From NCBI GenBank assembly GCA_038087875.1, contig CM075987.1:23128001-23192000 (forward strand): DNA of 64,000 bases, in the 5' to 3' direction. Source of the stretch: Malacoraja senta (taxonomy: Eukaryota). Numbering within the stretch: position 1 is the stretch's first letter; each line of letters begins with the position of its first letter. Both the position numbers and the translations under genes were made by a program. This document shows, in pieces, positions 1,328-58,472 of the stretch. The notes below the pieces were generated by a model. That model did not search any database. It saw nothing but the letters and a program-made list of their open reading frames with translations, and was not told the DNA's origin.

Positions 1328-1460
1328 GTCTGAAGAATGGGTCTCGACCCGAAACGTCACCCATTACTTCTCTCCAGAGATGCGGCCTGTCCCGCCGAGC
1401 AAATCCAGCAATTTGTGTCTACCTTTGTGTAAACCAGCATCTGCAGTTCCTTCCTACACA
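1328..1460 (+). mobile_element. Penelope-like terminal repeat with intact minimal hammerhead core
   Basis: CTGAAGA-at-GGGTCTCGACCC-GAAACGTC at 1330-1358, followed by the family tail (ttctctccagagatgc...gcatctgcagttccttcctacac). Confidence 0.75.
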
Positions 1461-2269
1461 TTGTGAGGGGCAAGATGTCGAGGCTTTTCATTGTGTCTCT
1501 CTACACGTAATGATGACAAAATAAAGTCCAATTCAATAACTACAGGAAATTTAATGGGACTATGGCCAGATATCCCACTGCCTCCCTCTCTCACTCACAC
1601 ACGCACTGAGAGCTGTAGGAGTGAGTCGATGTCCCCCCCCACCCCCTCTCCCCCTCCCCCCGTCCTTTAGCCTGTGGATATTTACCATAAATGTGCTCCA
1701 AAACCAAGCGAGAAACACAACCAATGCTGGAAATCTGCAATGCAGAAGCATTCAGCAAGTCAGGCCACCTCTGTGGCAAGATGAAGAGTTCAGAGGATAG
1801 TCTTTGAATCTATTTGTTGCTCCACGAATGCTGATGAGAAAAACCCAGTATTTGCTTATATTTCAGTTATGGCTTATTTGTTTTACCTTTGAGATGCTCA
1901 TCCTTTGAGCAGGTTTACCTTTGAAACATTGTACCTGCGAGCTGGTTTATCTTTGAAAGTTTGTACCTGTGAGCTGGTTTACCTTTGAGACCAAGTACTT
2001 GTGAGCAGGTTTATCTGTGACATGGTTTCCTTGTTGCAGTCACTGCCTGATTTGGGCTAAGTGCATTTCCCTGTTAGCCCTCTCTGCCTGGATTAATTAA
2101 TCACCTAAGGGATGACAGTACTTCAAACATATATTATAGTGTTAAATTAAACATGGAGCAAAAAAATATTCCTTTTGAGTTTCTGGAGTGATCTGCAGCT
2201 GCACGGTGCTAAATATAACCATTGCCACTCAGCACCTGCTGACGTGGGTCTCTGGTGCTCAGGGGAGAG

Positions 2270-2850
2270 AGGTTATGGAGCTGGGGGCAGACTGGGAGGT
2301 GAAGCGTGGAGGAGCTGGGGGCAAAGTGGAAGGGGCTGGGGGCAGAGTGAGAGGGGCTGGGGGCAAGAGTGAGAGGGGCTGGGGGTAGAGTGAGAGGGGC
2401 CGAGGGCAGAGTGAGAGGGGCTGGGGGTAGAGTGGGAGACTGCACCTGGGGGCAGAGTGAGAGGGGCTGGGGCAGGAGTGAGAGATGGTGGAGCTGGGGC
2501 GTAGAGTGAGAGGGGCCGGGGGTAGAGTGAGAGGGGCTGGGGGCAGAGTGAGAGGGGCTGGGGGCAGAGTGAGAGGGGATGGGGGCAGAGTGAGAGGGGC
2601 TGGGGTCAGTGAGAGATGGTGGAGCTGGGGGGCAGAGTGAGAGGGGCCGGGGGTAGAGTGGGAGACTGCACCCGGGGGTGAGGTGTTGTGGAGCCGGAGG
2701 AGTGATTGTGGAGCTGGGGAGAGTGGGAGGTGAAGCGTGGAGGAGCTGGGGGGTAGAGTGAGGGAGCTGGACCTGGGGGCAGAGTGAGGGATGGTGGAGC
2801 TGGGGGGGGGAGGGGGGTTGAGTGGGAGGCTGCACCCGGGGGTGAGGCAG
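2270..2850 (+). repeat. G-rich minisatellite, about 21-bp unit (ggggctgggggcagagtgaga)
   Basis: Directly visible tandem units with interspersed variants. Confidence 0.9.
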
Positions 2851-2899
2851 CCGCAGCCGGGACCAAAGATACTAGAGTAATGTCAGGGACAGGGACAGG

Positions 2900-3020
2900 G
2901 ACCGGGCCCTGGGGCAGCGCGGCGTGACGTCATGCGTCACGGCTTCACCTTTGCCTCCTCCCCCGGCACGTGACGCGGGCTTGTCCGGCTCCCCGCCCCC
3001 GGCCCCGCGCGCCCTCACCC
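2900..3020. promoter_or_regulatory. Putative CpG-island promoter core
   Basis: CRE TGACGTCA at 2925-2932, a half-CRE at about 2935-2939, E-box CACGTGAC at 2967-2974 and GC box CCCCGCCCC at 2991-2999. CpG density is high in an otherwise CpG-poor window. Confidence 0.55.
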
Positions 3021-3049
3021 CAGTCACGGGTTGTCCGTCACCTGCACCG

Positions 3050-3700
3050 GGCGGTCACCTCATCCCCGACCCCCCGCCACTGGTCACCGGTCACCTCATC
3101 CCCGACCCCCGCCACTGGTCACCTCATCCCCGACCCCCCGCCACTGGTCACCTCATTCCCGACCCCCCGCCACTGGTCACCTCATCCCCGACCCCCCGCC
3201 ACTGGTCACCTCATCCCCGACCCCCCGCCACTGGTCACCTCATCCCCGACCCCCCGCCACTGGTCACCTCATCCCCGACCCCCCGCCACTGGTCACCTCA
3301 GCCCCGACCTCCCGCCACTGGTCACCTCATCCCCGACCCCCCGCCACTGGTCACCGGTCACCTCATCCCCGACCCCCGCCACTGGTCACCTCATCCCCAA
3401 CCCCCCGTCACTGGTCACCTCAGCCCCGACACCGCTCACCGGTCACCTCAGCCCAGACCTCCCGTCACTGGTCATCTCAGCCCCGTCACTGGTCACTTCA
3501 GCCCCGTCACTGGTCACCGGTCACCTCAGCCCAGACCTCCCGTCACTGGTCACCTCAGCCCCGACACCGGTCACCGGTCACCGGTCACCTCAGCCCAGAC
3601 CTCCCGTCACTGGTCATCTCCGCCCCGTCACTGGCCATCTCTCAGCCCCATCCACCCCGACCTCCCGTCACCTCAGCCCCACCGGCCCGGTCACCTCGGT
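3050..3700 (+). repeat. C-rich minisatellite, 29-bp unit (ccactggtcacctcatccccgaccccccg), degenerating rightwards
   Basis: 29-nt period visible (for example acctcat at 3121 and 3150). It accounts for the three overlapping Pro-rich ORFs. Confidence 0.9.
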
Positions 3701-3899
3701 CACGGGTTGCGCACCGCCTTCACCGGCCACTTCAACCGCACGTCACCCGTCACCTCAGTCACCGGTTGTCCAACACTTTCGCCAGCTGTCCGGCCGTCCT
3801 CTCAGCTGACGGTCACCTTCGCCGTCTACCTCAGCCGCCGGTCGTCCATCACCTTCGCCGCCCTCCACCCGGCGAGATCAAACCTGAGTCACCTGTAAC

Positions 3900-5230
3900 A
3901 TTGGAAGCAGATACCAGAGCGGCGTTTGAGAGGCTTTTTAGATGGATATGCTAGGCATGGAGGGATATGGATCATCTCCTCTGAGATTAGTTTAATTTGC
4001 CACCTTGTTCAGTATGGACATTGTGGGCCGAAAGATTATCACGGGCCACATTTTTCTGTATTCTTTCAACTGTTCTTGCTATCTTATTGTTTTGAAAGGG
4101 AGTAAGAAGAGGCCACTCAGCCCCTCAGGTCTGCTATTCCATTCCATTTGGCACTCACCTCACGAAATCACGAGATAAGGTGATAACCGCTGTCTTTTCC
4201 TCCAGGATAGAGGAGTCCAAAACTGGAGGGCATATGTTTAAGGCGAGACAGGAAAGATTTAAAAGAGACCTGAGGGGGCAACATGTTCACACAGGGTGGT
4301 GCGTATACAGCATGAGCTGCCAGAAAAAATGATGGGTACAATAACTGATTGGAAAAGTTTGGAGGGATGTGGGCAGGCACAGGCAAGTGAGGCTAGCTGG
4401 GTTAGGCAGCTTGATTGGCATGGACGAGTTGGGGCGAAGGCCTGTTTCCGTGCTTAGCTGAATATCTGGCCTGGTCTCCATAGCTACAGAAAAAATCTAG
4501 AAGGACTGAAGATTATATAGTTTTGGTCTTCTTATCCAAAGAAGGAAATATGTGGTCTGGAGAGAGTGCAGTAAAGCTTCATCAGACTGGTTCCAGGGAT
4601 GGGATATCTGTTATCTGAGAAGAAATTGAGTAAGAAAGACTAAAAAATGTCCAAAATGGTTTAGGTTCAACAGAGTAGATGAAGGATACTTCCCTGGCTG
4701 AGCAATCTAGGAGGTCACTATCAAAATAATGCAATAGGCCACCTAGGATTAAATGAAGTGAAATGTATTAACTCAAAGAGCAGTGAATCTTTGGAATTTT
4801 CTACCCCAGTGGGTTCATTCAAAATTCAAATTGTTCGATTTTCAGGAATTCGAAGGATATGGGACACAGTAGGAAAATGGTGCTGAGTTAGAAGATGATC
4901 TTGTTGAACGATGGAGCAGGCTGAAAGAGTGGCAGAAACATTAAACAGGCTGCTATTTTCTATCGAAAAAATAAGTCAAAGATAACCTGTGGAGTCTTCA
5001 AGGTAAAGACTGGATTTATTCTAGTGGACATAAAGAAAATGTTTCAATGTATGATCAAGATCAAAACTGGACATAAGTGTCAGATTGTCTCTAATAAAAC
5101 CAATGGGTGTTCAAGGAAATCTTCCTCATGGAGTTATGGGAATGCGGAACTCTTTATTCCAAGTATTACCTGAGGTAAGTGGCATGCATGAATTTGAAGA
5201 AAAGGGAGGCAAGTACGAGAAAAACAGAAG
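3900..5230 (+). mobile_element. Cluster of degraded CR1 LINE 3' fragments
   Basis: CR1 3' signatures such as gggccgaag, gaagggcctgtttccgtgct, gtgaatctttggaatt and ggagagagtgcag. Many stops. Confidence 0.65.
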
Positions 5231-5559
5231 GATATGCTGGCAGGGTTAAAAGTAATTAAGCAAAAAACAAACTGCTGGATGAAATCAGCGGGTCAAGCAG
5301 TATCTGCAGAAGTGAGAACATCGTTGGAGACCAGAAAAACAGTAGAAACAACAGAAGAAGAACAGCAAGAGGGAGATTCACAGTACTACCAACAAAGAAG
5401 GAGAACTTCTTCAAGGTCAGCATGACGAAGAGAAATCTATGAGTAGTAAAATGGACACTGCAAATGCTGGAATCTGCAGCAATAAACAAACTGCGAGAGG
5501 AACTCAATAGGTCGATGTGAAAACATTGTCAAAGAGCAGAAGAGTATAATCTCCATGGC

Positions 5560-5770: not shown

Positions 5771-6493
5771 ATCTACATTGATTGTCTGCTTATGCAGATC
5801 TGTGTCAGATTTAATCTTGGTATGCATGTTTTCCAAGTTATAGCCATTGATGCCATGATGACGTTGGTGGAACGATGAAGAGGTAAATCGGCGGCTGTAA
5901 ATGTCTTCAAATTCACCTCGTAAAGCACCCTAAAATTCTGTGATCGGTTTGGGAAGCTGGTCATGGCCACATTGGTGCATGGAAGCGGAAGGGCAGCTGC
6001 TGGAGGAGATGCAAGGCTCGGTTGCGGGTTGTGGTATTGTCAGAAAGAAGCTGCAGCATGTGGCCGGGTAAGCGAGCAGAGCGCAGCCTGCAGATGCTTC
6101 ATGGAGTGGTGGTGGAAGGAGCAGACGGCATTGTGATGGGCTGAGCCAGCGGCATTGCGCTAGGCTAGGCCGACCCCTATTTCATCAACCAGTGGTGCCA
6201 GGATATCGGGCCTTAAAGTGAGAAAATAAGAAATTGTGTATGCCGATTCGGCCAAAATTGGACTTTTCAGAGACTTAAGACTTGAAAGTTGCAGGATGGC
6301 ACCGGAGCATAGATGATCTACTTACAATTGTTTACACTTTTTGCACTCATGTATGGTATGGATAGCATGCCTGAATAAGCTTTTCACTGTATCTCGGTAC
6401 ACATGACAACAATAAAAACGAATCTAATCTGTATACTTAAAAGATGTAGATGCAGGGGAATCATGTGGAGTCTAAGTACTGGTACAATTACTA

Positions 6494-6554
6494 GGTAGAT
6501 AAAAGTGCTGGAGAAACTCAGCGGGTGAGGCAGCATCTATGGAGCGAAGGAATA
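6494..6554 (-). mobile_element. Short Penelope-like terminal fragment with 12-bp TSD
   Basis: TSD gtacaattacta at 6482-6493 and 6555-6566. Confidence 0.75.
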
Positions 6555-7289
6555 GTACAATTACTAAGTTCATTTGGGATTACTGCTCACTTTCTGTGCA
6601 GTATTTGTAGCACACTTCTAATGTGGTCAGATCATCTCTTAATTTGTTCCCCTTGAAAGTTTAGTCTGCATAACAGCAAAGGATATGTTTAAGTGAAGTT
6701 TTTTATTATTATTGTTGCAGTGTGAAAAAGTTTATCCTTACTACTACCAGTCTGCCTGTGGTCAGAGGAACTCCTGGTTGTCTTGTTCTCTGATTTTGGC
6801 TTTAATTCGTGCTTTGCCTTTTACATCAGATATACACCATGGTTATAATATTGACATATATACAAGGCATGTATCTGTATGCCACATTCACTGTGGAAGC
6901 AATATCATTCTATGTACCAACAAGTTTTATGTAACATCAGCACAAGAAGTCTTCCTTTCCCATACATTCCATGAGGGATGCGTGGTTGTTACACAACTCC
7001 CAGACATTGTGTGTGCAGTGGTGGGAAGCCCTTCAACTCTGGCCTTTCCACACAAGAGTTTAGCACAAGTAGCTTTGGTAACTCTCTTGGCAAGTAGTCC
7101 TAGGCCTTCCAATATGCTGGTCTACAACATTCAGTTATAAATAACTCCTTGCACTAGAAGATTAAACAAGAATCAAACAGATCAAAGGATGTCTTTCACC
7201 GTAGCAGTCGGAAGCAGTCCATAGGACGCCGAAAATTGCATTATGCAACTATTTGGAATGAACCCTAATAAAGAATGTCTAATTTCTTC

Positions 7290-9430: not shown

Positions 9431-9499
9431 ACGTGTCAAATTTTGTTTGAACATGCTTACTGAGTGTTTACTGTGCTAACGGACTTTCATAAATACAAA

Positions 9500-10022
9500 G
9501 GTAGACAAAAATGCTGGAGAAATTCAGCACGTGAGGCAGCATCTATGGAGCGAAGGAATAGGTGATGTTTCGGGTCGAGACCCTTCTTCAGACCGATGTG
9601 GGGGCGGGAAGAAGAAAGGAAGAGGCAGAGACAGTAGGCTGTGGGAGAGCTGGGAAGAGGATGGGAAGGAGGGAGAAAGCAAGGACTACCTGAAATTGGA
9701 GAAGTCAATGTTCATACCGCTGGGGTGTAAACTGCCCAAGCGAAATATGAGGTGCTGCTCGTCCAATTTGCGGTGGGACTCACTCTGGCCATGAAGGAGG
9801 CCTAGGACAGAAAGGTCGGATTCGGAATGGGAGGGGGAGTTGAAGTGCTGACCCACCGGGAGATCAGGTTGGTTAATGCGAACTGTGCAGAGGTGTTGGG
9901 TGATGCGATCGCCACGCCTGCGCTTGGTCTCACCGATGTAGAGCAGCTGACACCTAGAGCAGCGGATGCAATAGATGAGGTTGGAGGAGGTGCAGGTGAA
10001 CTTCTGCCTCACCTGGAAAGAC
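9500..10022 (-). mobile_element. 5'-truncated Penelope-like element: GIY-YIG endonuclease plus 3' repeat with hammerhead core
   Basis: ORF 9686-10012 is stop-free and reads FTCTSSNLIYCIRCSRCQLLYIGETKR...GQHFN...LGSLHPSGMN (GIY-YIG, PLE type). Hammerhead core at 9564-9591. TSD taaatacaaa at 9490-9499 and 10023-10032. Confidence 0.92.
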
Positions 10023-14354: not shown

Positions 14355-14495
14355 TCTCTCTCCCCAGTTCTGACAAAAGGTCTTCAACCTGAAACGTTAT
14401 CTGTTTTTCTTTCCATTGATGCTCCCTGACCTGCTGAGTGTTTCCAGCAGTTTCTGCTTTTATTTCGGATTTCCAGCATCTGTAGTGTTTTGACT
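14355..14495 (+). mobile_element. Older Penelope-like terminal repeat
   Basis: cagttCTGACAAaAGGTcttcaACCTGAAACGTTatctg followed by gatgctccctgacctgctgag. Confidence 0.65.
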
Positions 14496-15180: not shown

Positions 15181-16428
15181 ATGAATTCAGATGTCTTGAG
15201 AGGTCAGTTGTGTTGTAAAGTCAGCTGTATCCAGATGTCTAATATTTAGCCACATTTCTCAACAATAATTAACCGTTGACCTTGCCCTTCGTACTGAGAT
15301 CAGCACTTGGCCGGACCAGTAGAACACGTGGAAAATACTAATGCATTTATTGATTTTAGACAGCAGAGTTGTGACAGAACATAACACAGAGTAGCTGGAT
15401 CAGTCTGTGAAGAGACCTGGGAAATCTGTGCCAGAGGCCTTGGTCCCATTACTGTGTCGTTGGACTTATACTGTTCCTGCACTGCCCTGTTCCTGAGCAC
15501 TTCTAGGGTGTCTGTTTTCCCACTCCACACGGAGCCGGTCTCCTGCTCCCTCCACGGTCTCATGCACTGTTCCATTCCCTCCAGGATGTGATGTGGTTCA
15601 TTGGGCTCTTATTCCTTGACCAGCTGGACACTGTGGAGCTAGCCCCAGAAGTAGCAATGGGTCAACGTGCTTCATTGTCACATATACCTCGGTACTGTGA
15701 AATATCTTTTTTTTTTTTTGCATACAATTTAGTAACAAATCTTACTATACATAAGCATAACCATACTTCAATAGAAAAGTGTAAGAATAGTTGATTACAC
15801 TGATGCAGTACACAGGAGCCATCATGTTTCCAACTCCACTTGTATGCTTCAAGTTTCAAAGCTCTTAAAATGATAGAGAGTTAACTTGTCCTTAGGGGCC
15901 TGTAGCCCTGGCGGCACTGGGTCGAAGATGTGGGGGGGTGGGGGGGGTCGGTGAATGTCTTTTGTCGCTGCTCAGCCACTCTGTGCGGCTACAGGTCACA
16001 TCCGATCCATGAGCTCGGCCTCTTGGAGTGGTGCCTGATATAATTGATCCCCAGGCTGCTGCAGGGCCTCTAGTGCCCCACTCCACCGACACATCGACCT
16101 GGACACGTCGACCCACATCTTGGTTAGATTTAAACATTTCTCCACTGGCTATAAAATGAGTACATATAGTTGTTGCACATCCCCCTTTTTTAAAATCCAG
16201 TCTTTAAGTTCTGTGAAGATGAATGTAAAATATTTATCAAAACTCAGCAGGTCAAGCAGCATCTGCGAAAGGAAATTGGTCAGGATCTTTCTTCAGACAT
16301 AATCTTTGTTTTGTTTCTCTGCTATTTCCTGATTCCCCATGATGCTTTCTCCTGCCACAACCTCTAAGGTACCGACTTAACTTTGTTGATCTGTTCCTTT
16401 TAACATATCTGTTGAGAATGGATCTTTC

Positions 16429-18979: not shown

Positions 18980-19160
18980 TAGCAAAGCACAAAGTGCTGG
19001 AGGAACTCAGCATGTCAGGCAGCATCTGTGGAGGGAATGGACTGATGACGTGTTGCATTGGCTGAATCCATGCTTCAGTTCAGAAGGGTCTCGACCCGAA
19101 ATGTCACCCATTCCTTCTCTCCAGAGATGCTGAGTTCCTCCAGCATTTTGTGCCATTCTT
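18980..19160. mobile_element. Fold-back Penelope-like terminal element
   Basis: The left arm gcacaaagtgctggaggaactcagc is an inverted copy of gctgagttcctccagcattttgtgc. Core remnant gaagggtctcgacccgaaatgtc. Confidence 0.7.
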
Positions 19161-20844: not shown

Positions 20845-21035
20845 ATTTTAGTATCCACCTATCACTTGCCAGGCTTTGTCTTGTCACCGCTCTGTCCAGC
20901 TTTCTCCCCCCACCCCCCCCCCCCCCGACTACATTCGGTCTGAAGAAAGGTTCCAGCCCAAAATGTCACCTCTTCATGTCCCACAGATGCTGTCTGGCCT
21001 GACCTGTTACGCCAGCATTTTGTATGTTTCATTTT
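20845..21035 (+). mobile_element. Penelope-like 3' remnant
   Basis: gtatccacctatcacttgcc...ggtctgaagaaaggttccagcccaaaatgtcacc...cagatgctg. Confidence 0.65.
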
Positions 21036-21789
21036 GTTAACCAAATTGTAATTGTTAATTTTTTCAGTCTGACGTGTTGTATTCATGGGGAGGGGGTGGG
21101 CGGTGTGTGTGTGTGTGTGGGCGGGGGGGTTGGTGGAGGAGTCAATGGGCTAGAATCTGGCAAACGGGACAGATAATAATCTTCAATACCCCTGGGGCAA
21201 AATGAAGCAACTTTCCCCTGAGATTTGCCGTGCCATTCATTGGTTGCTTTAATTCACTTGTGGTGCTTCAAGCTTTCAAACCCAGGATCACACGCGCAAA
21301 TCATTTCCCCGACAACTGCCACAGATTTTAGTTAGTTCTTGAGGTGTGAGAGAGGAGCCAAGCCTTTCAGTTTAAATGCAAACACTAGACAGATTTAAAT
21401 GGAAAATGTACTTAATGGGAAGTAGAGTTTAATGGTGAAACATACTTAATGGGGCGTATTACTTGAATATAGGCACTGTAACTTAATCTTCCTGGGTCCC
21501 AATCATTCTTTTTCTCTTTTATAGCCTTTAAACTGGCAATGAACAGAAAAGTACACAGAGTGCTGGAGTAACTATGCTGGTCAGGCAGCATCTCTGGAGA
21601 ACATGGATAAGCAACGTTTTGCGTCAGGACCCTTCTTCCGACTCAGCGAACTTCTGAATGGACAGAAAGTTGGGCTGCCGGTGAAATCTGTGGCATCAAC
21701 GGTTGGCAGAGCAGGTGCGACCTAATTGCAATTATCTGCCACACAACAAGCTTCAACATTTCGCAAACACTGACCTGCTGCCTCTGGTC

Positions 21790-23524: not shown

Positions 23525-23797
23525 AGGTAGACAAAAGTGCTGGAGAAACTCAGCGGGTGCAGCAGCATCTATGGAGCAAAGGAAATAGGCAACGTTTCGG
23601 GCCGAAACCCTTGGGTTTCGGCCCGAAACTTTGCCTATTTCCTTAAGGGTTATTTCCTTAAGGGTTGCCTATTCCCTTAAGGGTTTCGGGCCGAAACGTT
23701 GCCTATTTCCTTCGCTCCATAGATGCTGCTGCACCCGCTGAGTTCCTCCAGCACTTTTGTCTACCTTCGATTTTCCAGCATCTGCAGTTCCTTCTTA
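23525..23797. mobile_element. Young fold-back Penelope-like terminal element with 14-bp TSD
   Basis: About 88-bp inverted arms (23525-23612 and 23679-23766). TSD aaggctagaaccct at 23511-23524 and 23798-23811. Confidence 0.88.
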
Positions 23798-24389: not shown

Positions 24390-24940
24390 TAACACAGGGC
24401 AGCTTGCAACCTAATGGTATGAACATTGAATTTAAACTAATGTCCCACCTACCCCCTTTTTCTTTCCCATACCCCCCCCCACCCACCACGACCCCGATGC
24501 ACCTCCATCTCTAATGCTATCTCCCACCCCTCCGGTTCCCTGCTCCTTTCTCCTCCTTCGTACACTTATCTCTCATCCCGGAGACCCCATTCCTCTTTTA
24601 TCCCTCTCTTTTCCCCACCCCAACCCATCCCCTTGCACCCACTTCCACCCCTCTGGCTTTACATGGCACTCTTCTCCTCCTTATCTGACACCCCTTGACT
24701 TCCACCACCCATCTGTCAATCAACTCTCCCCCCCCTCCCCACCTGTATCCACCTATCACTCGCCAGTCTATGTCTCACCTCACCCCTATCCTTTCCAGCT
24801 TTCTCCTCCCTTCTACAGTCAGTCTGAAGAACAGTTCCCACCTGAAATGCCTTCTATCCATTCTCTGCACAGATGGTGCCTGACCCACTGAGTTCCCCCA
24901 GCACTCTGTGTTTTGCTCTGTATTCCAGTTACGTGTGTCT
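24390..24940 (+). mobile_element. Penelope-like remnant: GIY-YIG end, pyrimidine-rich 3' UTR and degenerate hammerhead
   Basis: ggcagcttgcaacctaatggtatgaacattgaattt encodes GSLQPNGMNIEF. cagtctgaagaa...gaaatgcc lies at about 24820-24850. Confidence 0.75.
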
Positions 24941-26068: not shown

Positions 26069-26206
26069 GTGTAGGAAGGAACTGCAGATGCTGGTTTAAA
26101 TCAAAGGTAGACACAAAATGCTGGAGTAACTCAGCGGGACAGGCAGCATCTCTGGAGAGAAGGAATGGGTGATGTTTCGGGTCGAGACCCTTCTTCAGAC
26201 TGATTA
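26069..26206 (-). mobile_element. Penelope-like terminal repeat with 11-bp TSD
   Basis: TSD ttcctattatt at 26058-26068 and 26207-26217. Core at 26171-26198. Confidence 0.85.
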
Positions 26207-30599: not shown

Positions 30600-33585
30600 C
30601 GCGACTGGGGATAATCTATATTTATACGGTATGGTCTGAGAATTGGTGTAAGAGGCATGAAGAACGAAAGGGTCATTTGCCTGTTGGTGGGGTGCCATCG
30701 GATCAGTGCTGAAGTCTCATCTATTTATAATCTACATCAATAACTGCAATGATGGCATTGAGTGCAATACATCAAAGTTAGCCACGGACACAAAGCTTGA
30801 TTCGAAAGTGAAATATGAGCATGGAATAACACTGCAGAATCTGAGTATAACATCATGAGGGGAATAGATAGGGTGAATGCGCAGAATCTTTTATCCAGGG
30901 TAGGAGAATCAAGAACAAGAGGACATGGGTTTAAAGTGAGACGGTAAGATTTGATATGAACCTGAGGTACAACGTTTTCACTTGTATGGAACGAGCTGCC
31001 AGAGGGGGTAGTTGAGGCAGGTATCATAACCAAATTTAAAAGACAATTGGGCAGGTACGTGGATAGGAAAGATTTAGAGGGCCATGGGCCAAACACTGGA
31101 AAATGGGACTAGCTTCAATGAGGCATCTTGGTCGGCATGGACAAGTTGGGCCGAAGGGCCTGTTTCTGTGCTGTATAACCCCATGCCACCACACCAAAGG
31201 TATAAACAGGCTAAAGGAATGGTCACAGCAGAACAGAATGGAGAATTGGATGGGAAAATATGAAATTAATCATCTTGGCAAGAAAAGGCAGACTGTTCTT
31301 GATGAGACAAGAGACTGAAAAATGCAAAATGTTGGTGTTGACGAGAACCCAGCTGTCGTGTTACATAAATCACAGAACGTTAACCTGTGGTTGCTGTAAA
31401 CAGTCAGGAAGACAAATGATATCACAGGCAGGTTAGATTAGAAGATTAAAGAAGTCTTGCCACAATTGCAAGGTTTTTGATATGAACACACCTTGGGAAC
31501 TCTGCAGATTCTGGTCATTGAAGCCAGGGAGGGATACATTTGCCTCAGAGGAGTGCAGCAGAGGTTCACGCATTGAAATAAAGAGCATTGAACAATGTGG
31601 AGAGATTGAAGAGCAAACATGCTTCCAAATTATCGAACAAATGTTGCAGGGTTTTTAATGGGATTAAACTGTGGGTTTAACGTCAAAATGTCAGTGCAGA
31701 ACCCCATCAGTACTGCCCCTCTGACAGTGGGGCACTCAGTACTGCCCTTCTGACAGTGCGGCACTCCCTCAATACTGCCCCTCTGACAATACAGAGCTGC
31801 CTCAGTCCTCTATGGAAGAGTAATCATAGGATATAATTTGACTTTGAATATGAAAGTACGATAGTTCAATCTGAAGCCAAGATCTTAAATCTAAACAAAG
31901 AAACTGTGTGTTGGTTGTTGTTGACTGGGAAAGTGCAGTGAAAGGTGTATCAGTGAACAGACAGTAGCAAGCATTTGAATAAACAATGTATAATTTGAAG
32001 AAAAAAGATATTCCGCTAAGACACCAGAACCCAACAGGAGAATTGATCCGTCAGATGTTGTCAAGATAAATTATCGACGGTATTGCATCCAAGGCAGAGG
32101 TTTCTAACGTTGCCAGAAATAGAGATATGGAGTTGTATACCACAGAAATGGGCTGTTAGGAATAGGTCTGAGATTTGGGTGGATTTTAGAACTCAGAAAA
32201 GATAGACTAAGTAATTGACGATGAAAGGCAAGACTGAATATAGCGTAAGAGTTGGCTGACAAGTAATACAAAAACCGACTAGGCTTCTGTAGGTGTGTTG
32301 AAGCTGAAGACTAGGGAGAACAAATATGGGTCCCTCATGGGTAGAGATGTAAGAATTTATAACTTGAAGTAAGGGAAAGACAAGAGGAATGATACAATTA
32401 TATTGAGTCCCTCTTCATAGAAGAAGGCAGAAAACGAACCCAGATATATTAGAAAAATCAAGGTCTAATGGGAAAGATTATCTGTAGACAATCAGAATGA
32501 GTTAAAAAATTGTGCTAGAGAAGTTGGCGAAAGTAAAATTGATAAATCCCAAGGAGCTACTCATCTACATCCCAGAGTTTTGAAAGAGATGGCTGAAGAG
32601 AGAGGATTATCAACTTCCAAAATTCTCTAAATGCTGGAATAGTCCCAGGGGATAGGAGGGCAGCAAACGTGACGACAATTGAAGAAATGAGGATGAGAGA
32701 AGAGAGAACGCCACAGAGCTGTTAATCTAATGTTGGCAGTGTGGGAGGTGCTGGGATCTATAATGATGGATGGAACTGACCACCTTGAAAAATAATTGTA
32801 TTGACCAGAGTCAGCATGGATAAATGAAAGGAAAATTAAAGGCACAACGGAAAGAAATTATCGACATGAGGAAAGGAAAATTATGCTTGACTAGTCAGTC
32901 CACTGCAGTTCTTTGAGAACGGGGCAAGTAGAGTAGATAAGGGGGTGCCAGTGGATGTGGTATATATAGATTTTCATGAGGTCTTCAACATGGCCCCACA
33001 CAGGAGGTTGATTAAGAAGGATGACAAAAATGCTGGAGAAACTCAGCGGGTGCAGCAGCATCTATGGAGCGAAGGAAATAGGCAACGTTTTGGGCCGAAA
33101 CCAGGCCACAGAACTGTGGGAGGGGGGGATAATATACTGATGGATTGAAAATTGGATGTCAGACAAAGAGTGAAAATGAACAGATCTCTCAGAAGCAAAA
33201 ACCAAACTGTTTGGAGGAACTAAACGGGACAGACATCATAGGAGGTGGAAAATGGACGGTTGATGTTACAGGTCAGGACCCTTCATTTGGCCCTCTCTCA
33301 AGTTGACAGCCTCTAATAGGACATACCTTTAGGGAGGAATCTCTTTAGCCAAAGGGTGGTGAATCTGTGGAAATCATTGCCACGGATGGTTGTGGAGGCC
33401 AAGCCATTGGGTATTTTTAAAGCGGAGATTAATAGATTCTTGATTAGTAAGGGGGGTCAAAGATTATGGGGAGAAGGCAGGAGAATGCAGTTGGAAGGGC
33501 AAAATAGATCAGCCATATTGACTGGCAGAGCAGACACGATGGGCTGAATGGCCTAATTCTGCTCCTATGTCTTATGATCTTATGA
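30600..33585 (+). mobile_element. Long, heavily degraded CR1 ORF2 pieces with younger insertions
   Basis: Encodes PVDVVYIDF..F and VVNLWKSLP; gataaatcccaagga and gaccagagtcagcatgga motifs. A CR1 tail is inserted at about 30850-31180, Deu-SINE units at about 31700-31810 and a Penelope piece at about 33020-33102. Confidence 0.7.
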
Positions 33586-36980: not shown

Positions 36981-37147
36981 GGGAACATGCAGCATTTGCT
37001 GGCTGGCTTTACACCTTCTGTGACTAATGGCCACACAATGTACCTTAGATACAAGGACAGCACGTTCAATTAATATAGCCTCACAGTCATTCAGCTTGGA
37101 ATCAAGCCCTATGGCACAACTCATTCATGCCGACCAAAGTAAAAAGC

Positions 37148-37685
37148 TGTTTTAAAGAAGGAACTGCAGATGCTGGAAAATCGAAGGTACACGAAAATGC
37201 TGGAGAAACTCAGCGGGTGCAGCAGCATCTATGGAGCGAAGGAAATAGGCAACGTTTCGGGCCGAAACCCTTCTTCAGATGCTCAATAGGCAGATGGTTG
37301 GAACAAAGGCCAGAGATAAAAGCAGAAGGTGTGAGACAGGATTGAATAGTGGCGAATTGTGAAGCCAGAGGGGGGAATGTAAGGGAGGGGGAGGGTGAAA
37401 TAGGTTGGAGTCCAGGTGAAGCGCAAGGAAGGAGAGGGGTGGAGAAAGGAAGTGGGGGTATGGGGGGTTAGTTAGAGGTTGCGGAAAATTATAGAATTGA
37501 ATGCTCAGGGTTTTGGGCTGTAAGGTGCTGTTCCTCCAGTTTGCATGTGGCCTCACTTTGTAGGGTCTCCACCCGAAACGTCACCTATCCATGTTCTCCA
37601 GAGTTGTTGCCTGACCTGCTGAGTTACTCCAGCACTTTGTGTCCTTTTGTGCCTTAACCAGCGTCTGCAGCTCCCTGCTTCTCCA
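37148..37685. mobile_element. Penelope-like composite with inverted terminal repeats and intact hammerhead core
   Basis: Minus-strand core CTGAAGA-a-GGGT-TTCG-GCCC-GAAACGTT at 37251-37278. GIY-YIG end remnant at about 37490-37560. An opposite-orientation terminal copy lies at 37562-37685. Confidence 0.8.
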
Positions 37686-38499: not shown

Positions 38500-39003
38500 A
38501 TGGGGGGGACCTCACTGAAACTTACCCAATAGTGAAAGGCCTGGATGCAGTGGATGTGGAGAGGATGCTTCCAGTGGTGTGAGAGTCTAGGACAAGAGGC
38601 CACAGCCTCAGAATAAAAGGACGTACGCTTAGAAGGGAGACGAGGTGGAATTTCTTTAGTCAGAGGGTGGTGAATCTGTGGAATTAATTTGTGGAGGCAT
38701 AGTCACCGAGTATTTTTAAGCTATAAGAAGGAAGTGCAGATGCTGGTTTACACCGAAAATAGACACAAAATGCTGGAGTAACTCAGCGGGGCAGGCAGCA
38801 ACTCTGGAGAGAAGGAATAGGTGATGTTTCGGGTCGAGTCAGGGGAGATGGAAACTAGAGGCAGAGATTGAAAGATTCTTGATTAGTACGGGTGTCAGAG
38901 GTTCTGGTGAGAAGGCAGGAGAATGGGGTTGAGAGGGAAAGACAGATCAGCCATGGTGGAGTACACTTGATGGGCCGAATGGCCCAATTCTGCTGCTATA
39001 ACA
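38500..39003 (+). mobile_element. CR1 3' end with a Penelope terminal piece inserted (about 38724-38860)
   Basis: gagtctaggacaagaggccacagcctcagaat and gtggtgaatctgtggaatt motifs; tail gatgggccgaatggcc. Confidence 0.85.
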
Positions 39004-46463: not shown

Positions 46464-47204
46464 GTAACTGTGGGTATGGGATCATACGTGGGTGAGATTG
46501 GGTACAGACAGAAATGTCCTTCCCTGTACAGCAGGGAACCAGAAGAGCTTCGACAGCCATCATGTAGTTTCACCTCACTGGTAAAGATGTTCATTCCAAA
46601 TGTATTTAATTTAATCGATTCAGTCTTACGTCTCCAGATCGATAGCCCAGACCTGTAGATACCAATCCCGGTAAATCAAGCAGCGTGCTGCCGTGTCCCC
46701 AAGGAGATAGAGATAGAGTGAAATACTCACAGTTACACAGGTAAACACTTCTGAAACATGGCATGAGATTTACAGCCAGGAAACAGGCTGTTCGCTCCAT
46801 TTAAGACAATGCTGGAGTAACTCAGCGGGTCAGGCAGCATCTCTGGAGAGAAGGAATTGATGACATTTCTGGGTCGAGACCTTTCTTCTGTCTGAAGTGT
46901 GTACCTGCCTCTACCATTTTATCTGGCAGCTTGATCCACGTACGTACTATCCTCTGTGTGAAAACGCTGCCCCTGGGGTCACTTTTAAATCTTTCTCACC
47001 GTTTACTTTCCTTTAGCCTCTACCCTTTGTTGCTCTGTTTTGAAACTGTCCATGTGGACACTTGCTCTTAACTCTACACGCTCCAATCTTCGTAAAGTGC
47101 CCCCTGACTTACTCAAGGTCTTTTACAAACCCGAATACATGACGTCTACCACACCACCCTGGTCAACCCTCACTGCTGCGTCTTCACAAAATTCATAATC
47201 ACAA

Positions 47205-48159: not shown

Positions 48160-48660
48160 GCAAGAAGGAACTGCAGATGCTGGTTTACAACGAAGATAGA
48201 CACAAAATGCTGGAGTAACTCAGCGGGTCAGACAGCATCTCTGGAGAAAAGGAATAGGTGACGTTTCGGGTTGAGGCCCTTCATCCTAAAAGGGTGAAAA
48301 TCCTTTCCGTCCCCTGGCTCTCTTGTCAAAATGGATGGCACAGTGGCACAGGTGGTGGAGCTGATGTCTCACAGTGCCAGGGACCCGAGGTCAAACCTGG
48401 CCTCAGGTGCTGTCCGTGTGGAGTTTGCACGTTCTCCCTGTGACTGCGTGAGTTTCCTCTGGGTGTTCCGGTTCCTCCCACTTCCCAAAGACGTGCGGGT
48501 TTGGAGGTTGGTCGGCCTCCGTAAAATTTGCCTCGTTGTGTCGAGAGTGAATGCGAACGTGGGAGAACACAGAACTAATGTGAACGGGTGATCGATGGCT
48601 GGCATGGACCAAGTGGGCCGAAGGGCCTGTTTCCTTGTTGCATCTTTCAATCAATCAATC
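48160..48660. mobile_element. Penelope terminal piece (-; 48160-48285) followed by an HE1-like SINE (+; 48330-48660)
   Basis: Family signatures as in the other copies. Confidence 0.8.
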
Positions 48661-49918: not shown

Positions 49919-50118
49919 NNNNNNNNNNNNNNNNNNNNNNNNNNNNNNNNNNNNNNNNNNNNNNNNNNNNNNNNNNNNNNNNNNNNNNNNNNNNNNNNNN
50001 NNNNNNNNNNNNNNNNNNNNNNNNNNNNNNNNNNNNNNNNNNNNNNNNNNNNNNNNNNNNNNNNNNNNNNNNNNNNNNNNNNNNNNNNNNNNNNNNNNNN
50101 NNNNNNNNNNNNNNNNNN
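49919..50118. other. Assembly gap (200 N)
   Basis: Run of N. Confidence 1.
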
Positions 50119-50398
50119 GGTCGGGGTTGGAGGCCGGGGTCGGGGTTCGAGGCCAGGGTCGGGGTTGGGGTTGGAGGCCAGGGTCGGGGTTGGAGGCCAG
50201 GGGTCGGGGTTGGAGGTCAGGGGTCGGGGTTGGAGGCCAGGGTCGGGGTTGGAGGCCAGGGTCGGGGTTGGAGGCCAGGGGTCGGGGTTGGAGGCCAGGG
50301 GTCGGGGTTGGAGGTCGGGGGTCGGGGTTGGAGGCCAGGGTCAGGTTGGAGGCCAGGGTCGGGGTTGGAGGCCAGGGGTCGGGTTTGGAGGTCAGGGG
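50119..50398 (+). repeat. G-rich 20-21-bp minisatellite (ggggtcggggttggaggcca) running into the gap
   Basis: Directly visible. Confidence 0.95.
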
Positions 50399-52139
50399 TA
50401 TCGCAGCATCTGCCCGTGTGTAACATTCAGCAGCTTTAGGTCTCCCAAGCCGAGGTTTATAAATTTTAATGTGGCCGGCTCGATCTTCAAAGAATCCGGC
50501 GGAAAAAACGCTCGTTCGGCAGCTGTCGAGGCAATGTGTTTCCATGGTGACAATTTGCATTCTGTCAAATTCTCCAGTTAATGGGAAAAGATGAATGGGA
50601 GAGAGACGGAGAGAAGGGGGAGAGAGGGAGGAGGGAGAGAGTGAGAGAGAGAGAGAGAGAGAGAGATGGGAAGGAGGGAGGAAGAGAAGGAGAAAGAAGG
50701 AGGGAGGGAGAGAGGACGGGTGAGATGGTGGAGAGAGATAGAGAGGGAGAGAGAAAGGATGTGGAAGGAGGGGGAGGGAAAGAGATGGAGAAGAAGGGAG
50801 GGGAGAGAGGGAAGAAGAGAGGGTGAGGAATTCAGAGGGTGGAGGGAGGGATGCTGGATAAAACTCAGCGGGTGAGGCAGCATCTATGGAGCGAAGGAAT
50901 AGGCGAAGGAATTTTGTGTCGAGGCCCTTCTTCAGACTGAACGTCGCCTATTCCTTCTCTCCATGGATGCTGCCTCACCCACTGAGTTTTCTCCAGCATT
51001 TTGTCTACTATCCATGTAACTGTCTGTTTCTTAAACGTTGGGATAGTCCCTGCCTCATCTACCTCCTCTGCCTCATCTACCTCCTTCTTAAGGAATGTGA
51101 AAATGACAAGGAATGAGGAAATGGAGAGACAGTATAGAGAGAGAGAGAGAGAGAGAGAGTGTGTGAGGATAGTGGATGGAAATGAGGAAAAAGTGAGGGA
51201 GAGTCTGGATGAAAGTGAGACAGATAAAGCTGGCGAGGGAGGAAGATAAAGGGAGAGTGAAAGATTAAAAAGAATTAAAGACCGAAGGGAATGAGAGGAA
51301 AAGGACAGCAACAGAGTTAGCAGTGAGTTGAGAGCGAGAGATACGGAGAGAGTGTTGTAGGAAATGAGCTCCACTTGACTGGGATTCAGATCTTCCACTA
51401 AAACTCCATGGATTTCTCCACGGAGGGAAAATGAGGCTAAAATTACCGGCAGGTTGTGAACGTGATAAAGAGAGGAAAGGCAGAGGTGGAGGAACAGACA
51501 AAGAGAGAGACAGGCAGCGGCACATCCTCAGGGATATGTGTTCGGTTTAATTTAATCCGGGAGTGATTTACATTGATAGTTAATTTAATATCACTTTGGC
51601 AATTTAAAATGTGGAGGATTTGGCAATCGTCTCATGAGCATCGGAAAGATTGGACCTCGGATGGCAGATTTGGCTTTATCCATCGCTGGAGAAAACTGCG
51701 TTCAGTGCCACGATGAACGAAGGATGCACGGGGAGAGTGTTTAAAAGGCAACCACTCACACACACTTGTACCGCTCCACCCAAGGATACAGTGGAGATTT
51801 GCGAGGATGATGCCAGGACTAGAGGGGCTGAGCTACAGGGAGAGGTTGCGTCGGCTGGGACTCTATTCCTTGGAGCACAGGGGGATGAGGGGTGATCTTA
51901 TAGAGGTGTACAGAATCATGAGAGGAATAGATCGGGTAGATACACATAGTCTCTTGCCCAGAGTAGGTGAATCGAGGACAAGAGGACATAGGTTTACGGT
52001 GAAGGGGAAAAGATTTAATAGGAATCTGCAGGGTAACTTTTTAACACAAAAGGTGGTGGGGGTATGGAATAAGTTGCCAGAGGAGGTAGTTGAGGCAGGG
52101 ACTATCCCAACGTTAAGAAACAGACAGGTACATGGATAG

Positions 52140-52561
52140 TAGACAAAAATGCTGGATAAAACTCAGCGGGTGAGGTAGCATCTATGGAGAGAAGGAATAG
52201 GCGACGTTCAGTCTGAAGAAGGGCCTCGACACAAAATTCCTTCGCCTATTCCTTCGCTCCATAGATGCTGCCTCACCCGCTGAGTTTCTCTCCGGCAATT
52301 TTGTCTACCTTCGAATTTTTCCCGGCATCTGCAGTGTAAAGAGGCGTCATAACACACTGTGTCTTTACTACTGTTTATTCATGATACACCTACTTTACTG
52401 CCCTAGCTGTTCGTGGTCTGTCACCGGAACCACAGAGAGCGAGCACTGGGTTGGGAAGGTTGTAATTCTACTAGTGATGCGGGGAGTGGTTAGTAGTGGT
52501 GAGGTCACTATGTTAAAGGTACATGCACATGTCATCTACATGCAGTTCCTTCTTAAACACA
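52140..52561. mobile_element. Fold-back Penelope-like terminal element inside CR1
   Basis: Inverted arms at about 52140-52205 and 52242-52308. The end gcatctgcag|ttccttcttaaacac is split by a solo LTR. Confidence 0.85.
52335..52540 (-). mobile_element. Solo LTR, 206 bp
   Basis: TGTA...TACA termini, 5-bp TSD tgcag at 52330-52334 and 52541-52545, and AATAAA on the minus strand at 52374-52379. Confidence 0.8.
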
Positions 52562-55018: not shown

Positions 55019-55330
55019 AAACCCCTGTCTCACGGTGCGAGCTGACCCACGAGGTACCCCGAGCTTAAAGCAAATTTAACTCGTGGTAATCACGTACGAT
55101 TAACGTAGCGGGAACGTCGGAACTCGTGGACGCAACTTAGCGACTCTTGGCGCTAACGGCAGGTACCCGTGAAACTTGTTAACCCATGGAAAAATTCAAC
55201 CATGTTTAAAGTATTCCACGAGTAAAATGTACTCTTGAGATTAAAAATTGAAACATTTAAACATGTTGTAAGAACGCAGTGGCCCGTGCGTTTACCTTAG
55301 TGACTCGTGAGTCTACCGTGGGAACTCTTG
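55019..55330. mobile_element. Probable Harbinger-type MITE, right end disrupted
   Basis: Begins aacccctgtctcac, similar to the TIR at 58734, with internal acgag/ctcgt subrepeats. A Penelope piece follows at about 55331-55375. Confidence 0.4.
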
Positions 55331-55384
55331 AACTCAGCGGGCAGGCAGCATCTCTGGAGAGAAGGAATGGGTGATGGGATGACA

Positions 55385-56225: not shown

Positions 56226-56407
56226 AGGTACTCCCCCCGCAGTCTCTCCGCGGCCTCTCCCCGGGCAGGGTGCATCTGCCTCAGGCTGCCCAGGCAGTCA
56301 GACACGACTCTGGTGGCGGGCTCCATGCACAGCTCCTGCCGGCCGGCTGGGAGCGGCGACGGAGGACAGGGGGAAGTTGGCCACCAGCGGGGCAGTCTCG
56401 GCTCTCC

Positions 56408-56459
56408 ATGCAGTCCGAGTCTCGCTGGATCCTCGTAATCCTCTGCCTCTGTCAAATTG
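56408..56459 (+). CDS. Candidate first coding exon (signal peptide) of a secreted or cell-surface protein, tentatively KIRREL1/NEPH1-like
   Basis: Encodes MQSESRWILVILCLCQI plus 1 nt, then the donor G|gtgagt (52 nt, phase 1), after a CpG-rich leader. M1, S3 and W7-I8-L9 match the human KIRREL1 N-terminus as recalled (MLSLLVWILTLSDTFSQG). No convincing next exon lies in the window, consistent with a long first intron. Confidence 0.5.
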
Positions 56460-56751
56460 GTGAGTTTAACCTGACCCTCCCCCCCCAACCTCCCTCCACC
56501 TCAACTCACGCCTGGGCACCAAAGCAGCTCAGGAGGCGAACCCTGAGCTCCGTCTCCCAACAATCTGATGTGCGCATCCGTCCACATTCAAAGATTTCAT
56601 CTCCAGTCTCCCCGCAGTGTGTAGACCTGGCAGTAAATTCAATTAAAATATAGCAAACCTCCGCCTGCTGGTCTTCTAACTACGTGATGTGTGTTTATAC
56701 CATCTCTCACTGCGATCTCATCAACCCCTTTCCCTCACATCCTGTAACCTG

Positions 56752-57380
56752 GATGGTGGCACAGTGGCGCTGAGGTCGAGCTACTGCCTCACAGCGCCAG
56801 AGACAATAGACAATAGACAATAGGAGCAGGAGTAGGCCATTCGGCCCTTCGAACCAGCACCGCCATTCAATGTGATCATGGCTGATCATCCCCAATCAGT
56901 ACCCCGTTCCTGCCTTCTCCCCATATCCCCTGACTCCGCTATTTTTAAGACCCCTATCTAGCTCTCTCTTGAAAGCATCCAGAGAACCTGCCTCCACCGC
57001 CCTCTGAGGCAGAGAATTCCACAGACTCACCACTCTCTGTGAGAAAAAGTGTTTCCTCGTCTCCGTTCTAAATGCCTTACTCCTTATTCTTAAACTGTGG
57101 CCCCTGGTTCTGGACTCCCCCAACATCGGGAACATGTTTCCTGCCTCTAGCGTGTCCAAGCCCTTAACAATCTTATATGTTTCAATGAGATACCCTCTCA
57201 TCCTTCTAAACTCCAGAGTGTACAAGCCCAGCTGCTCCGGGTTCGATCCTGACTACGGCTGCTGTCTGTACGGAGTTTGTACGTTCTCGCCGTGACCTGC
57301 GTAGGTTTTCTCCGGTTGAGGTCGGGGTTGAGGCTGGGACCCTGGTGCTGTGAGGCATCTGCACTATCTGCCGCGCCACT
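56752..57380. mobile_element. HE1-like SINE (+) split by a young CR1 (-; 56801-57233)
   Basis: The SINE head ends ...cagcgccagaga and resumes ccgggttcgatcctgactacgg at about 57237. The CR1 ORF 56896-57225 has a (caataga)n tail. Confidence 0.9.
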
Positions 57381-58064
57381 GTCTCGTCCGTTCGATCCTT
57401 TTCGCAAGTTTGCCTTTACAAACTCGAAGCACGCAGCTTGTGACTGAATTTCCGACAACTCAAAAGCTCTTCATCAGTGGTGTGGGAGGCTGGAGTCTCC
57501 TGAGCCGGTAAAAATACTTTATAAAGGCAAAAACTTAAAAAAATAGATGATTGAGGAAAGGACTCTGGCCACCTCCTGGTGAATTTAATCTCCCTAATGC
57601 TTTTATTTTGTTTCTGCAGTTTCAAAGAATTAAATGGATTCTTTGAAGACTTAATCCATTGCTGATTAAAGAGTACATTCACTTTCCAATGAACCCAAGC
57701 AATCAATGCATGCTTGATTATCTCACTCTGAAGCAATCTTTCACTCAGTGACTGCTCCTTTTCCCACACCGATGCTCACACTGGCGTTGGCCGTCGTTCA
57801 ATATCCGACTGCAATGAATGGCTGACGATCCCATCGGATGCCATGAAGACAACTTGAAGCAGTTGCTGCTTCTGCACCGGCTGCCACCGTGGTGAAAATA
57901 CGAGCCCTTGGGTATTGAGCTCCAGTCGTGTGTCCAGCATTCAATCTGCTACCTTATTCTGAACTGAGACAGAAGAGCAATCCATCTTCTGCCTTCAGCC
58001 TCCCATCACTGGGCATAAAACTTCTCCCTGCTGAGTGAAGCAACAGAAATGCTGGAAGAACTCG

Positions 58065-58472
58065 GGCCAGCACGGTGGCGCGGCACCAGACTTGCCGCCT
58101 CACAGCTCCAGAGTCCCGGGTTCGATCCTGACCACGGGTGCTGTCTGTATGAAGTTTGTACGTTCTCCTCGTGATCTGCGGGGGCTTTCACCGGGTGCTC
58201 CCGTTTCGTCCCACACTCTCCAAAGACGTGCAGGTTCATCGGCTATTTGGCTTGGTAAAGTGTTTAAGAAGGAACTGCTTAAGGGTTTCGGCCTGAAACG
58301 TTGCCTATTTCCTTCGCTCCATGGATGTGGCTTGGTAAAGTAGTAAATTGTCCCTCGTGTGTGTGTGTGTGTGTGTGTGTGGGGGATAGTGTTAATATGT
58401 GGGGATCGCTGGTCAGCACGGACTCGGCGGGCTGAAGGGCCTGTTTCCACGCTGTATCTCTAAACTAAATTA
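58065..58472 (+). mobile_element. HE1-like SINE with a Penelope terminal fragment inserted (58262-58327)
   Basis: 14-bp TSD tggcttggtaaagt at 58248-58261 and 58328-58341. Confidence 0.88.

Follow-up and report, generated by a model that had tools for sequence, protein, structure and literature searches.

Dispersed short repeats of Malacoraja senta as probable 3' ends of Penelope-like elements that open with a minimal hammerhead motif

The stretch of DNA considered here consists of 64,000 nucleotides (nt) of the Malacoraja senta genome (assembly GCA_038087875.1, contig CM075987.1, positions 23,128,001 to 23,192,000, forward strand) and is called the window below; coordinates given without a locus name are positions in it. 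The window is strewn with short repeats which most probably (we put the probability at about 0.85) represent the 3'-terminal module found in several Penelope-like element (PLE) families, and this module begins with a minimal type I hammerhead motif. A preliminary description of the window, made from the sequence alone, had also taken the repeats for PLE ends, and this assignment is borne out by an open reading frame (ORF) with the order reverse transcriptase (RT), linker and GIY-YIG endonuclease, by a tail with two end sites, by head-to-head pairs of copies and by heavy 5' truncation.

The repeat opens with CUGAAGA, one unpaired A and a 4-bp stem II, followed by GAAACGUC. Taken over all families, the motif of the module is formed by CUGAAGA (or CUGAUGA), an A left unpaired, stem II (4 bp, with a tetraloop or pentaloop at its end), GAAA and ACGU, and the predicted cleavage position is after GUC or GUU. 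An iterated nhmmer profile finds 32 copies in the window, i.e. more than were counted in the preliminary description (more than 15), and a profile of the 131-position unit finds 30, covering 4.5% of the window. The shared module is 95–130 nt long and not 130–300 bp, as had been proposed, and three copies (512-567, 882-958 and 968-1038) precede the start of the region described earlier.

A search for the pattern CTGANGA-N(8-30)-GAAAC returns four sites in the window, at 1330 (+), 9591 (-), 26198 (-) and 37278 (-), with the same coordinates as the four complete cores reported before. The core at 1330..1358 (+) is composed of CUGAAGA, two unpaired nucleotides (AU), stem-loop GGGU-CUCG-ACCC and GAAACGUC, and its ACGU palindrome is intact; the unit extends to about 1458 with a long tail and is accompanied by a target-site duplication of 12 nt (1 mismatch) located 6 nt upstream. 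The palindrome is decayed to ACAU in the cores at 9564..9591 (-), whose unit (9498-9591) has the short-tail end, and at 26171..26198 (-), whose unit (26070-26198) has the long tail and a target-site duplication of 12 nt (1 mismatch) 7 nt upstream. The core at 37251..37278 (-) is intact: it harbors GGGU-UUCG-GCCC, ACGU and the triplet GUU as the predicted cleavage position, and its unit (37152-37278) has a long tail. All three stem II variants noted previously (GGGT-CTCG-ACCC, GGGT-TTCG-GCCC and AGGT-CTTCA-ACCT) were found as well, the last of them in the old-family copy at 14370..14454 (+), with stem II AGGU-CUUCA-ACCU and a core mutated to CUGACAA (CTGACAA in the DNA).

Taken alone, the loose pattern is weak, with 1.05 matches expected and at least four matches in 4 of 100 shuffles. 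This marginal enrichment, together with the lack of any Rfam model match, is what could be said for a chance origin of the hammerhead likeness, an explanation which we consider extremely improbable. A strict descriptor (core, 0–1 unpaired nucleotide, stem II of at least 4 bp, GAAA-NN-U-H) matches three sites of the window, whereas 200 dinucleotide shuffles yield 0.015 matches on average and 1 at most. The 1330 core fails this descriptor because two unpaired nucleotides (AT) precede its stem II, and the copy at 37251-37278 (-) is the sole one in the window that is intact under it with the palindrome included. Chance is further opposed by the tens of thousands of exact copies in the genome, for which the reversed-pattern controls give none, by the location of the motif at the known place of PLE hammerheads and by the compensatory nature of the changes between families.

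The exact 25-mer cores counted genome-wide number 28,408 with the CUCG loop and 20,930 with the UUCG loop (reversed-pattern controls, 0 in both cases), that is 49,338 exact cores of the two variants together, and the very high density of motifs asserted in the preliminary description is thus confirmed. The unit profile was applied to the window and to 15 arbitrarily placed 10-kb loci (214 kb in total), where 97 unit matches were obtained. The 150 kb of arbitrarily placed loci contain 67 of these matches, with at least one match in 14 of the 15 loci, a density of 0.45 per kb and 4.2% of the bases covered; six motifs in them satisfy the strict descriptor, the palindrome being intact in four. Extrapolated roughly, this corresponds to several hundred thousand copies of the module in the genome.

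The connection of the module with PLEs is seen directly at 9686..10021 (-), where the 5'-truncated end of a PLE ORF (111 amino acids) codes for a GIY-YIG endonuclease. The attachment of one copy to such an ORF had been pointed out before; the Pfam match is weak (E=2.1e-4; 21.9 bits, just below the cut-off of 22.6). The stop codon is separated from the hammerhead by a pyrimidine-rich 3' untranslated region (3'UTR) of 94 nt (9592..9685, -). When this piece of ORF was compared with its own genome (1.94 Gb), 95,340 first-look candidates were obtained, and the 150 of them that were scored all had E<=4.2e-62. A fuller genomic copy, L022:4547-6262, contains an ORF of 572 amino acids in which RVT_1 (E=1.7e-5) precedes GIY-YIG (E=8.7e-4), both Pfam scores being under the curated cut-offs. 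Among 8,000 candidates scored, this ORF has 1,154 relatives at E<=1e-5 (best 8.6e-202). PF00078 and PF26215 are present in most of the 120 relatives listed and PF01541 in some of them too; the nearest named relatives among the matches listed belong to sharks and rays (60–67% identity). The linker of the L022 ORF carries the motif C-x4-C-x2-C, 40 residues ahead of the endonuclease motif LIY...YIGET. This linker is given as a mark of Neptune/Nematis elements in PMC8557442, which suggests, from the sequence of one ORF, that the L022:4547-6262 family is Neptune-type.

The 3' end of the module is found at two alternative sites about 35 nt apart: 24 of the 97 unit matches end at unit positions 92–100 and 36 at position 125 or beyond. 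According to PMC11167929, the anole element has an optional tail of 30–40 bp and two adjacent internal RT start sites. The two end sites and the optional tail found here match that description, so that a hallmark of PLEs is present in the module. Both 3' end sites are directly preceded by CCAGCAU, and AGAUGCUG in the module body (unit positions ~50–57) is the complement of CAGCAUCU, which belongs to the long tail (~106–113), as for example in the copy 26070-26198. This pairing and CCAGCAU may represent a structure, or else an element by which the two RT start sites are recognized.

The copies are also arranged as is typical for ends of PLEs. Among 82 adjacent pairs, those with a gap of at most 100 nt comprise 15 head-to-head pairs, 7 direct pairs and no tail-to-tail pair; gaps of at most 20 nt occur in 14 pairs against 5.5 expected by random placement, in any orientation. 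Truncation from the 5' side is heavy: the ORF is reached by 1 of ~80 tail-bearing matches (90 matches overall). In locus L019 a long copy has an inverted unit directly at its 5' end, which is the pseudo-long-terminal-repeat (pseudo-LTR) arrangement. The long copy there (at L019:4364-4396, -) has ORF pieces of 241, 308 and 430 amino acids, and its module homology ends about 4 nt past the predicted cleavage site, giving way there to AT-rich sequence that is unrelated. This arrangement recurs in L020, L021, L010-L013 and L015; the locus is duplicated on several small contigs, and hence these cases count as one event.

On contig 1, exact UUCG-type cores form two arrays (9 and 10 cores, all on one strand within an array), mostly 2–3.5 kb apart, at 3.872-3.892 Mb (spacings of ~1.96, 2.45 and 3.2 kb) and at 4.002-4.035 Mb (2.4–7.3 kb). 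These arrays represent either PLE tandems in head-to-tail order or a satellite composed of such tandems. Another assignment of the units would be to non-LTR retrozymes, whose hammerhead repeats lie in tandem and give rise to small circular RNAs. The type I hammerhead itself and four direct pairs with a gap of at most 20 nt would fit it, but the copies are mostly solitary or head-to-head (direct pairs at gaps up to 100 nt are the 7 of 82 mentioned above), and PLE ORFs are physically linked to the module. No head-to-tail arrays of the short unit alone were seen beyond direct pairs in the 214 kb sampled. Stem I is longer and the loops interact in canonical retrozyme hammerheads as characterized in PMC4209133, and we regard the retrozyme assignment as very unlikely.

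For the conservation of the motif, 19 main-family copies, selected for their coverage of it, were compared with 9 copies of the old family. Base pairs were counted by a script, as MAFFT sets the additional nucleotide of the old family before stem II and not in the loop; the column counts are based on 132 copies from the window and the other loci. Families were compared because dead copies say little on selection. In the main families CTGAAGA is retained in 18 of 19 copies, GAAA in 17 and C or T at position 17 in 18. The commonest intact core of the old family is CTGATGA (CUGAUGA in RNA), yet it is found in 2 of 9 copies only, and the old-family 19-mer (AGGU-CUUCA-ACCU) has 24 exact genomic copies. 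Between A9 and 10.1, 81 of 84 copies have an A as the unpaired nucleotide.

The pairs of stem II are formed in 84–92% of 84–90 copies; with the 3' partner shifted by one or two columns, the figure drops to 24–66%. Both U-A and U-G occur at 10.4-11.4. Pair 10.1-11.1 is G-C in the main families (15 of 19 copies) and A-U in the old family, i.e. it is compensated on both sides. The second compensated pair belongs to stem I: at 1.2-2.2, 17 of 19 main copies have C-G, and 6 of 9 old ones have A-U. Stem I as a whole is weak. Among the 19 main copies, pair 1.1-2.1 is formed in 19, pair 1.2-2.2 in 17, positions 1.3 and 1.4 are paired in 2 each, 1.5 in 14 and 1.6 in 12; in the old family four successive positions are paired in 6, 8, 4 and 7 of the 9 copies. 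Stem I of the dominant families is thus formed by 2 bp, a 2x2 mismatch and 2–3 possible further pairs, and the caution about this stem expressed in the preliminary description (2–3 bp, activity uncertain) was justified. Helix III inside one molecule would be reduced to A15.1-U16.1 alone with CG between the two, which falls short of a helix; a helix III of 4 bp is feasible only between two molecules, via ACGU.

PMC4209133 attributes to the minimal hammerheads of PLEs, in addition to what its search descriptor demands, compensated differences between families, one nucleotide between A9 and 10.1, the pair G10.1-C11.1 and palindromic positions 15.2-16.2. All four features are recognized in the motif described here, in agreement with its earlier reading as a minimal type I hammerhead with helix III cut down to the ACGU palindrome.

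This palindrome is intact in 11 of the 19 main copies, the other 8 having ACAT, ATGT or ACGA. Its decay was previously ascribed to CpG deamination, and indeed the substitutions concentrate at CpGs: C15.2 is replaced by T in 22 and G16.2 by A in 25 of 113 copies, and C11.1 by T in 24 and G12 by A in 23 of 105 copies. The neighbouring A13, A14 and A15.1 are kept at 96–98%. The CpG observed/expected ratio in the window is 0.47.

The 5' ends of the copies deserve separate consideration. Of the 97 copies, 62 start at unit position 9 or before it, 16 at positions 10–25, 8 at positions 26–34 and 11 beyond position 34, so that 86 start at or before position 34. An exact start of nearly all copies at the hammerhead was considered and rejected in part. 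The pile-up of starts at the motif is to some extent an artifact, because the 3'UTRs differ from family to family and homology to one profile therefore begins at the motif. Inspection by eye of the sequence upstream of 61 copies starting at position 9 or before it revealed pyrimidine-rich, 3'UTR-like sequence in about 17–20, head-to-head junctions in about 15 and unrelated flanks in about 25. In the last group the starts are scattered over a stretch reaching from about 12 nt upstream of the motif as far as the beginning of stem II, and some clustering of ends in the motif and immediately before it is still apparent. Judged by target-site duplications, two copies start 6–7 nt before the unit and two at approximately its first base (gap -1), 2 nt before C3. 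An automated search for target-site duplications of at least 8 nt gave candidates in 9 of 98 copies starting at position 12 or before it and is unfit for mapping 5' ends.

These starts can be accounted for in another way, by a non-autonomous lineage of the short units, similar to short interspersed nuclear elements (SINEs): the module would be transcribed alone or by read-through and copied in trans by the PLE enzyme. The very large number of stumps starting near the motif would be explained by such a lineage, which is also favored by the unrelated flanks right at the motif, the four starts set by target-site duplications, the near absence of copies reaching the ORF and the share of the module in the sampled DNA (~4%). 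Read-through templates are feasible, since PLE reverse transcription starts inside the RNA (as described for the anole element in PMC11167929), and a 2026 preprint holds that the retrozymes of animals derive from PLEs and are non-autonomous. Still, the pile-up is partly an artifact of the differing 3'UTRs and the starts are spread over about 20 nt; moreover, short and long copies have the same variants of the module, i.e. a separate lineage is not seen, and the argument is based on 97 copies. Derivation of the short copies from a SINE-like lineage is therefore conceivable, though unlikely.

With the repeats taken as ends of PLEs, the question is whether their hammerhead cleaves, and several observations weigh against the reading of the motif as a working hammerhead. 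The Rfam hammerhead families give no match at gathering score, none at E<=10 over the window and none on 81 bases at the intact copy. Rfam hammerhead models describe the same catalytic core; the miss can probably be accounted for by a helix III which the models expect and which is missing from these motifs. The contiguous part of stem I in the dominant families is only 2 bp, with the scarcely paired positions 1.3 and 1.4 next to it. The predicted minimum-energy fold of three copies pairs GAAGAAGGG with sequence past the cleavage site, and no hammerhead is formed in it. Raw RNA reads of a related species were aligned to the intact copy L037:8650-8890 (33,461–34,986 reads in each of three runs); the depth is even over the predicted site, and no pile-up of starts or ends of molecules is seen there. 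Only 2 of the 97 genomic copies start at unit positions 29–31, where a cleaved template would be expected to start. PLE hammerheads are reported to cut poorly in vitro (PMC4209133), and cleavage is described as not needed for insertion of the anole element (PMC11167929).

The excess of conservation and covariation in the core relative to the rest of the repeat, by which the preliminary description proposed to judge the motif, is found in part. Families with unalignable 3'UTRs become alignable from a few nucleotides before C3 through the tail, so the conserved block starts at the hammerhead, and the stems do covary. On the other hand, the tail is conserved as much as the core, and the covariation amounts to two fully compensated pairs between a few families.

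The RNA reads show two further features. Differences above 10% within the motif sit at its three CpGs. At L037:8803-8829, reads antisense to the element exceed sense reads 5–7 times in a single-cell run of the related species, an orientation of the reads that need not be that of the RNA; in two bulk oligo-dT runs sense and antisense are symmetric.

The negative signs of cleavage fit published work on PLEs. As stated in PMC11167929, the anole motif needed the protein of the element to cut, its core mutants lose cleavage, and no RNA-seq reads end at its site; a review (PMC6765202) has PLE hammerheads acting probably as dimers rather than monomers. The same signs can be turned into an argument that the motif is kept for a role other than cleavage, namely pairing of two template RNAs through ACGU or binding or halting of the RT, the hammerhead shape being ancestral. 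The most expanded families combine the weakest stem I with a perfect core, the starts of copies are clustered in and just before the motif, and ends do not accumulate at the cleavage site either in the RNA of the related species or in the genomic copies. In addition, cleavage of the anole motif is reported as dispensable in vitro (PMC11167929), and Naiad PLEs thrive without hammerheads according to PMC8557442. Against such a role, all the catalytic nucleotides are kept, including those needless for a plain hairpin or a dimer signal, and stems I and II covary in the hammerhead register. The probable action as dimers (PMC6765202) and the loss of cleavage in the anole core mutants (PMC11167929) point in the same direction. 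We regard a purely non-cleaving role as improbable.

Elements of both alternatives are combined in a bolder proposal: the module would be a self-sufficient cassette common to several PLE families that has spread in a SINE-like manner to ~10^5–10^6 copies (~4% of the genome), and in the most expanded families its hammerhead would mainly mark the pairing of template RNAs and the end of reverse transcription, shaping 5' ends rather than cutting. In our opinion this proposal is quite improbable.

If the repeats are PLE ends, the following sequence of events can be proposed. The RT of the element would begin copying the RNA at one of the two neighbouring internal sites, and the two start sites result in the short-tail and long-tail 3' ends. 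Reverse transcription would usually stop early and leave mostly stumps of 95–130 nt, many of them as head-to-head pairs. In transcripts with two copies, for example from head-to-tail tandems, two motifs would pair through ACGU, and the paired motifs would cut the RNA of the element slowly or with the help of the element protein; dimer formation and cleavage are the steps we infer from published work on other PLEs. The dispersed stumps, most of them without the palindrome or the core CpGs, would be by-products of this process.

The remaining copies in the window illustrate the arrangements discussed above. Head-to-head inverted pairs are located at 882..1038 (882-958 minus, 968-1038 plus), at 18988..19150 (18988-19078 minus, 19082-19150 plus) and at 50851..51008 (50851-50935 minus, 50935-51008 plus), the junction of the last one being at the hammerhead. 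The pair at 52139..52311 is a near-copy of the pair 50851-51008 in reverse orientation, and at 23525..23767 a head-to-head group is formed by 23525-23612 (minus), 23613-23643 (plus) and 23679-23767 (plus). Two copies in direct orientation (33018-33110 and 33199-33288) occupy 33018..33288 (-). The copy at 6493..6556 (-) starts 3–4 nt past the predicted cleavage site and has a 12-nt flanking direct repeat, recognized by eye.

Like the pairs, the single copies were delineated by the nhmmer profile. Truncated or otherwise incomplete copies are those at 512..567 (+), truncated from the 5' side (profile positions 34–88), 1717..1789 (-), 5'-truncated and diverged, 5266..5307 (-), a short fragment (profile positions 47–88), 16241..16296 (-), with an internal deletion, 55330..55376 (-), a fragment from near the palindrome (profile positions 26–73), and 58275..58334 (+), a 3'-truncated copy of the UUCG type. 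Old copies lie at 20940..21023 (+), with a C-rich 3'UTR upstream, at 21549..21640 (-), with the core UCGGAAGA, and at 24824..24916 (+), with 3'UTR-like sequence upstream. Homology begins at stem II in the copy 37560..37642 (+), within stem II in 38758..38840 (-) and near G8 in 48194..48285 (-), the latter two having the long tail; the core of the copy 46806..46890 (-) is decayed.

Some other features of the window were noted. In a permissive Rfam scan, 50860-50990, 52157-52288 and 23582-23641 were scored as plant or animal "microRNA precursors" (E down to 6.6e-7), all of them below gathering score; these sites are head-to-head inverted pairs of PLE ends, which, if transcribed, would give long hairpins and a possible source of small RNA. 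A near-perfect 28-bp hairpin at 16420-16502 (-), mir-617/mir-101/mir-199-like below gathering score, is situated about 130 nt from the copy 16241-16296. G+C-rich minisatellites with units of 21, 29, 33/99, 57 and 20 nt are found at 2309-3703, 34680-35269, 36434-36981 and 50119-50399, and such minisatellites account for the long stretches open in every frame at 2209-3954. An assembly gap of 200 N (49919-50118) adjoins a minisatellite and an inverted pair of PLE ends. The ORF at 45382-45873 (-) matches Pfam ALKBH8_N (PF09004, E=3e-17) and may be a part of another retroelement or a gene fragment.

Hammerheads of PLEs have been known since their publication in 2014 (PMC4209133), and thus the kind of motif is not new. 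What is new is the scale, the single module common to several families and the weak stem I in the most successful of them. The number of exact cores (~49,000) is several-fold above the counts reported for coelacanth, Xenopus or axolotl. If a small share of the sense copies in introns or untranslated regions did cut themselves, host transcripts would be affected. The genome also provides a natural comparison, as PLE families with unrelated 3'UTRs share the same module and the weakest stem I belongs to the most expanded of them. It is therefore a good genome for asking what PLE hammerheads are for, a question which the field calls open (PMC8557442).

The closest known counterparts are the minimal hammerheads of metazoan PLEs, including the fish elements Xena, Poseidon and Neptune, as presented in PMC4209133. 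They share with the motif described here the CUGANGA/GAAA/UH core, a single nucleotide left unpaired between A9 and 10.1, the pair G10.1-C11.1, the palindrome at 15.2-16.2 and the pseudo-LTR location; they are likewise mostly solitary remnants of truncated elements, some of them close together on opposite strands. The differences given by the same source lie in stem II (4 bp here and 7–8 bp in Schistosoma), in stem I (2 contiguous bp in the dominant families here and 4–5 described there) and in the counts of motifs (49,338 exact cores here, ~4,000 in coelacanth and ~9,000 in Xenopus).

The Poseidon element PAc of Anolis carolinensis, in the account of PMC11167929, resembles the present elements in its two internal RT start sites, the optional tail of 30–40 bp, the pseudo-LTR hammerhead and the fact that no RNA-seq reads start or end at the cleavage site. 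In PAc the hammerhead and the beginning of the ORF overlap; in the present elements the hammerhead follows the stop codon at a distance of ~95–330 nt, and 95 or 130 nt separate it from the 3' end. The family assigned here appears, from its linker motif, to be Neptune-type rather than Poseidon. Animal non-LTR retrozymes, as portrayed in the preprint by Li, Clavereau and Pollet (2026), are similar in being short non-coding units with a type I hammerhead, kinship to the pseudo-LTRs of PLEs and dispersed monomers. They are defined by head-to-tail arrays, whereas in Malacoraja senta most copies are solitary or head-to-head, and coding PLEs physically end in the unit.

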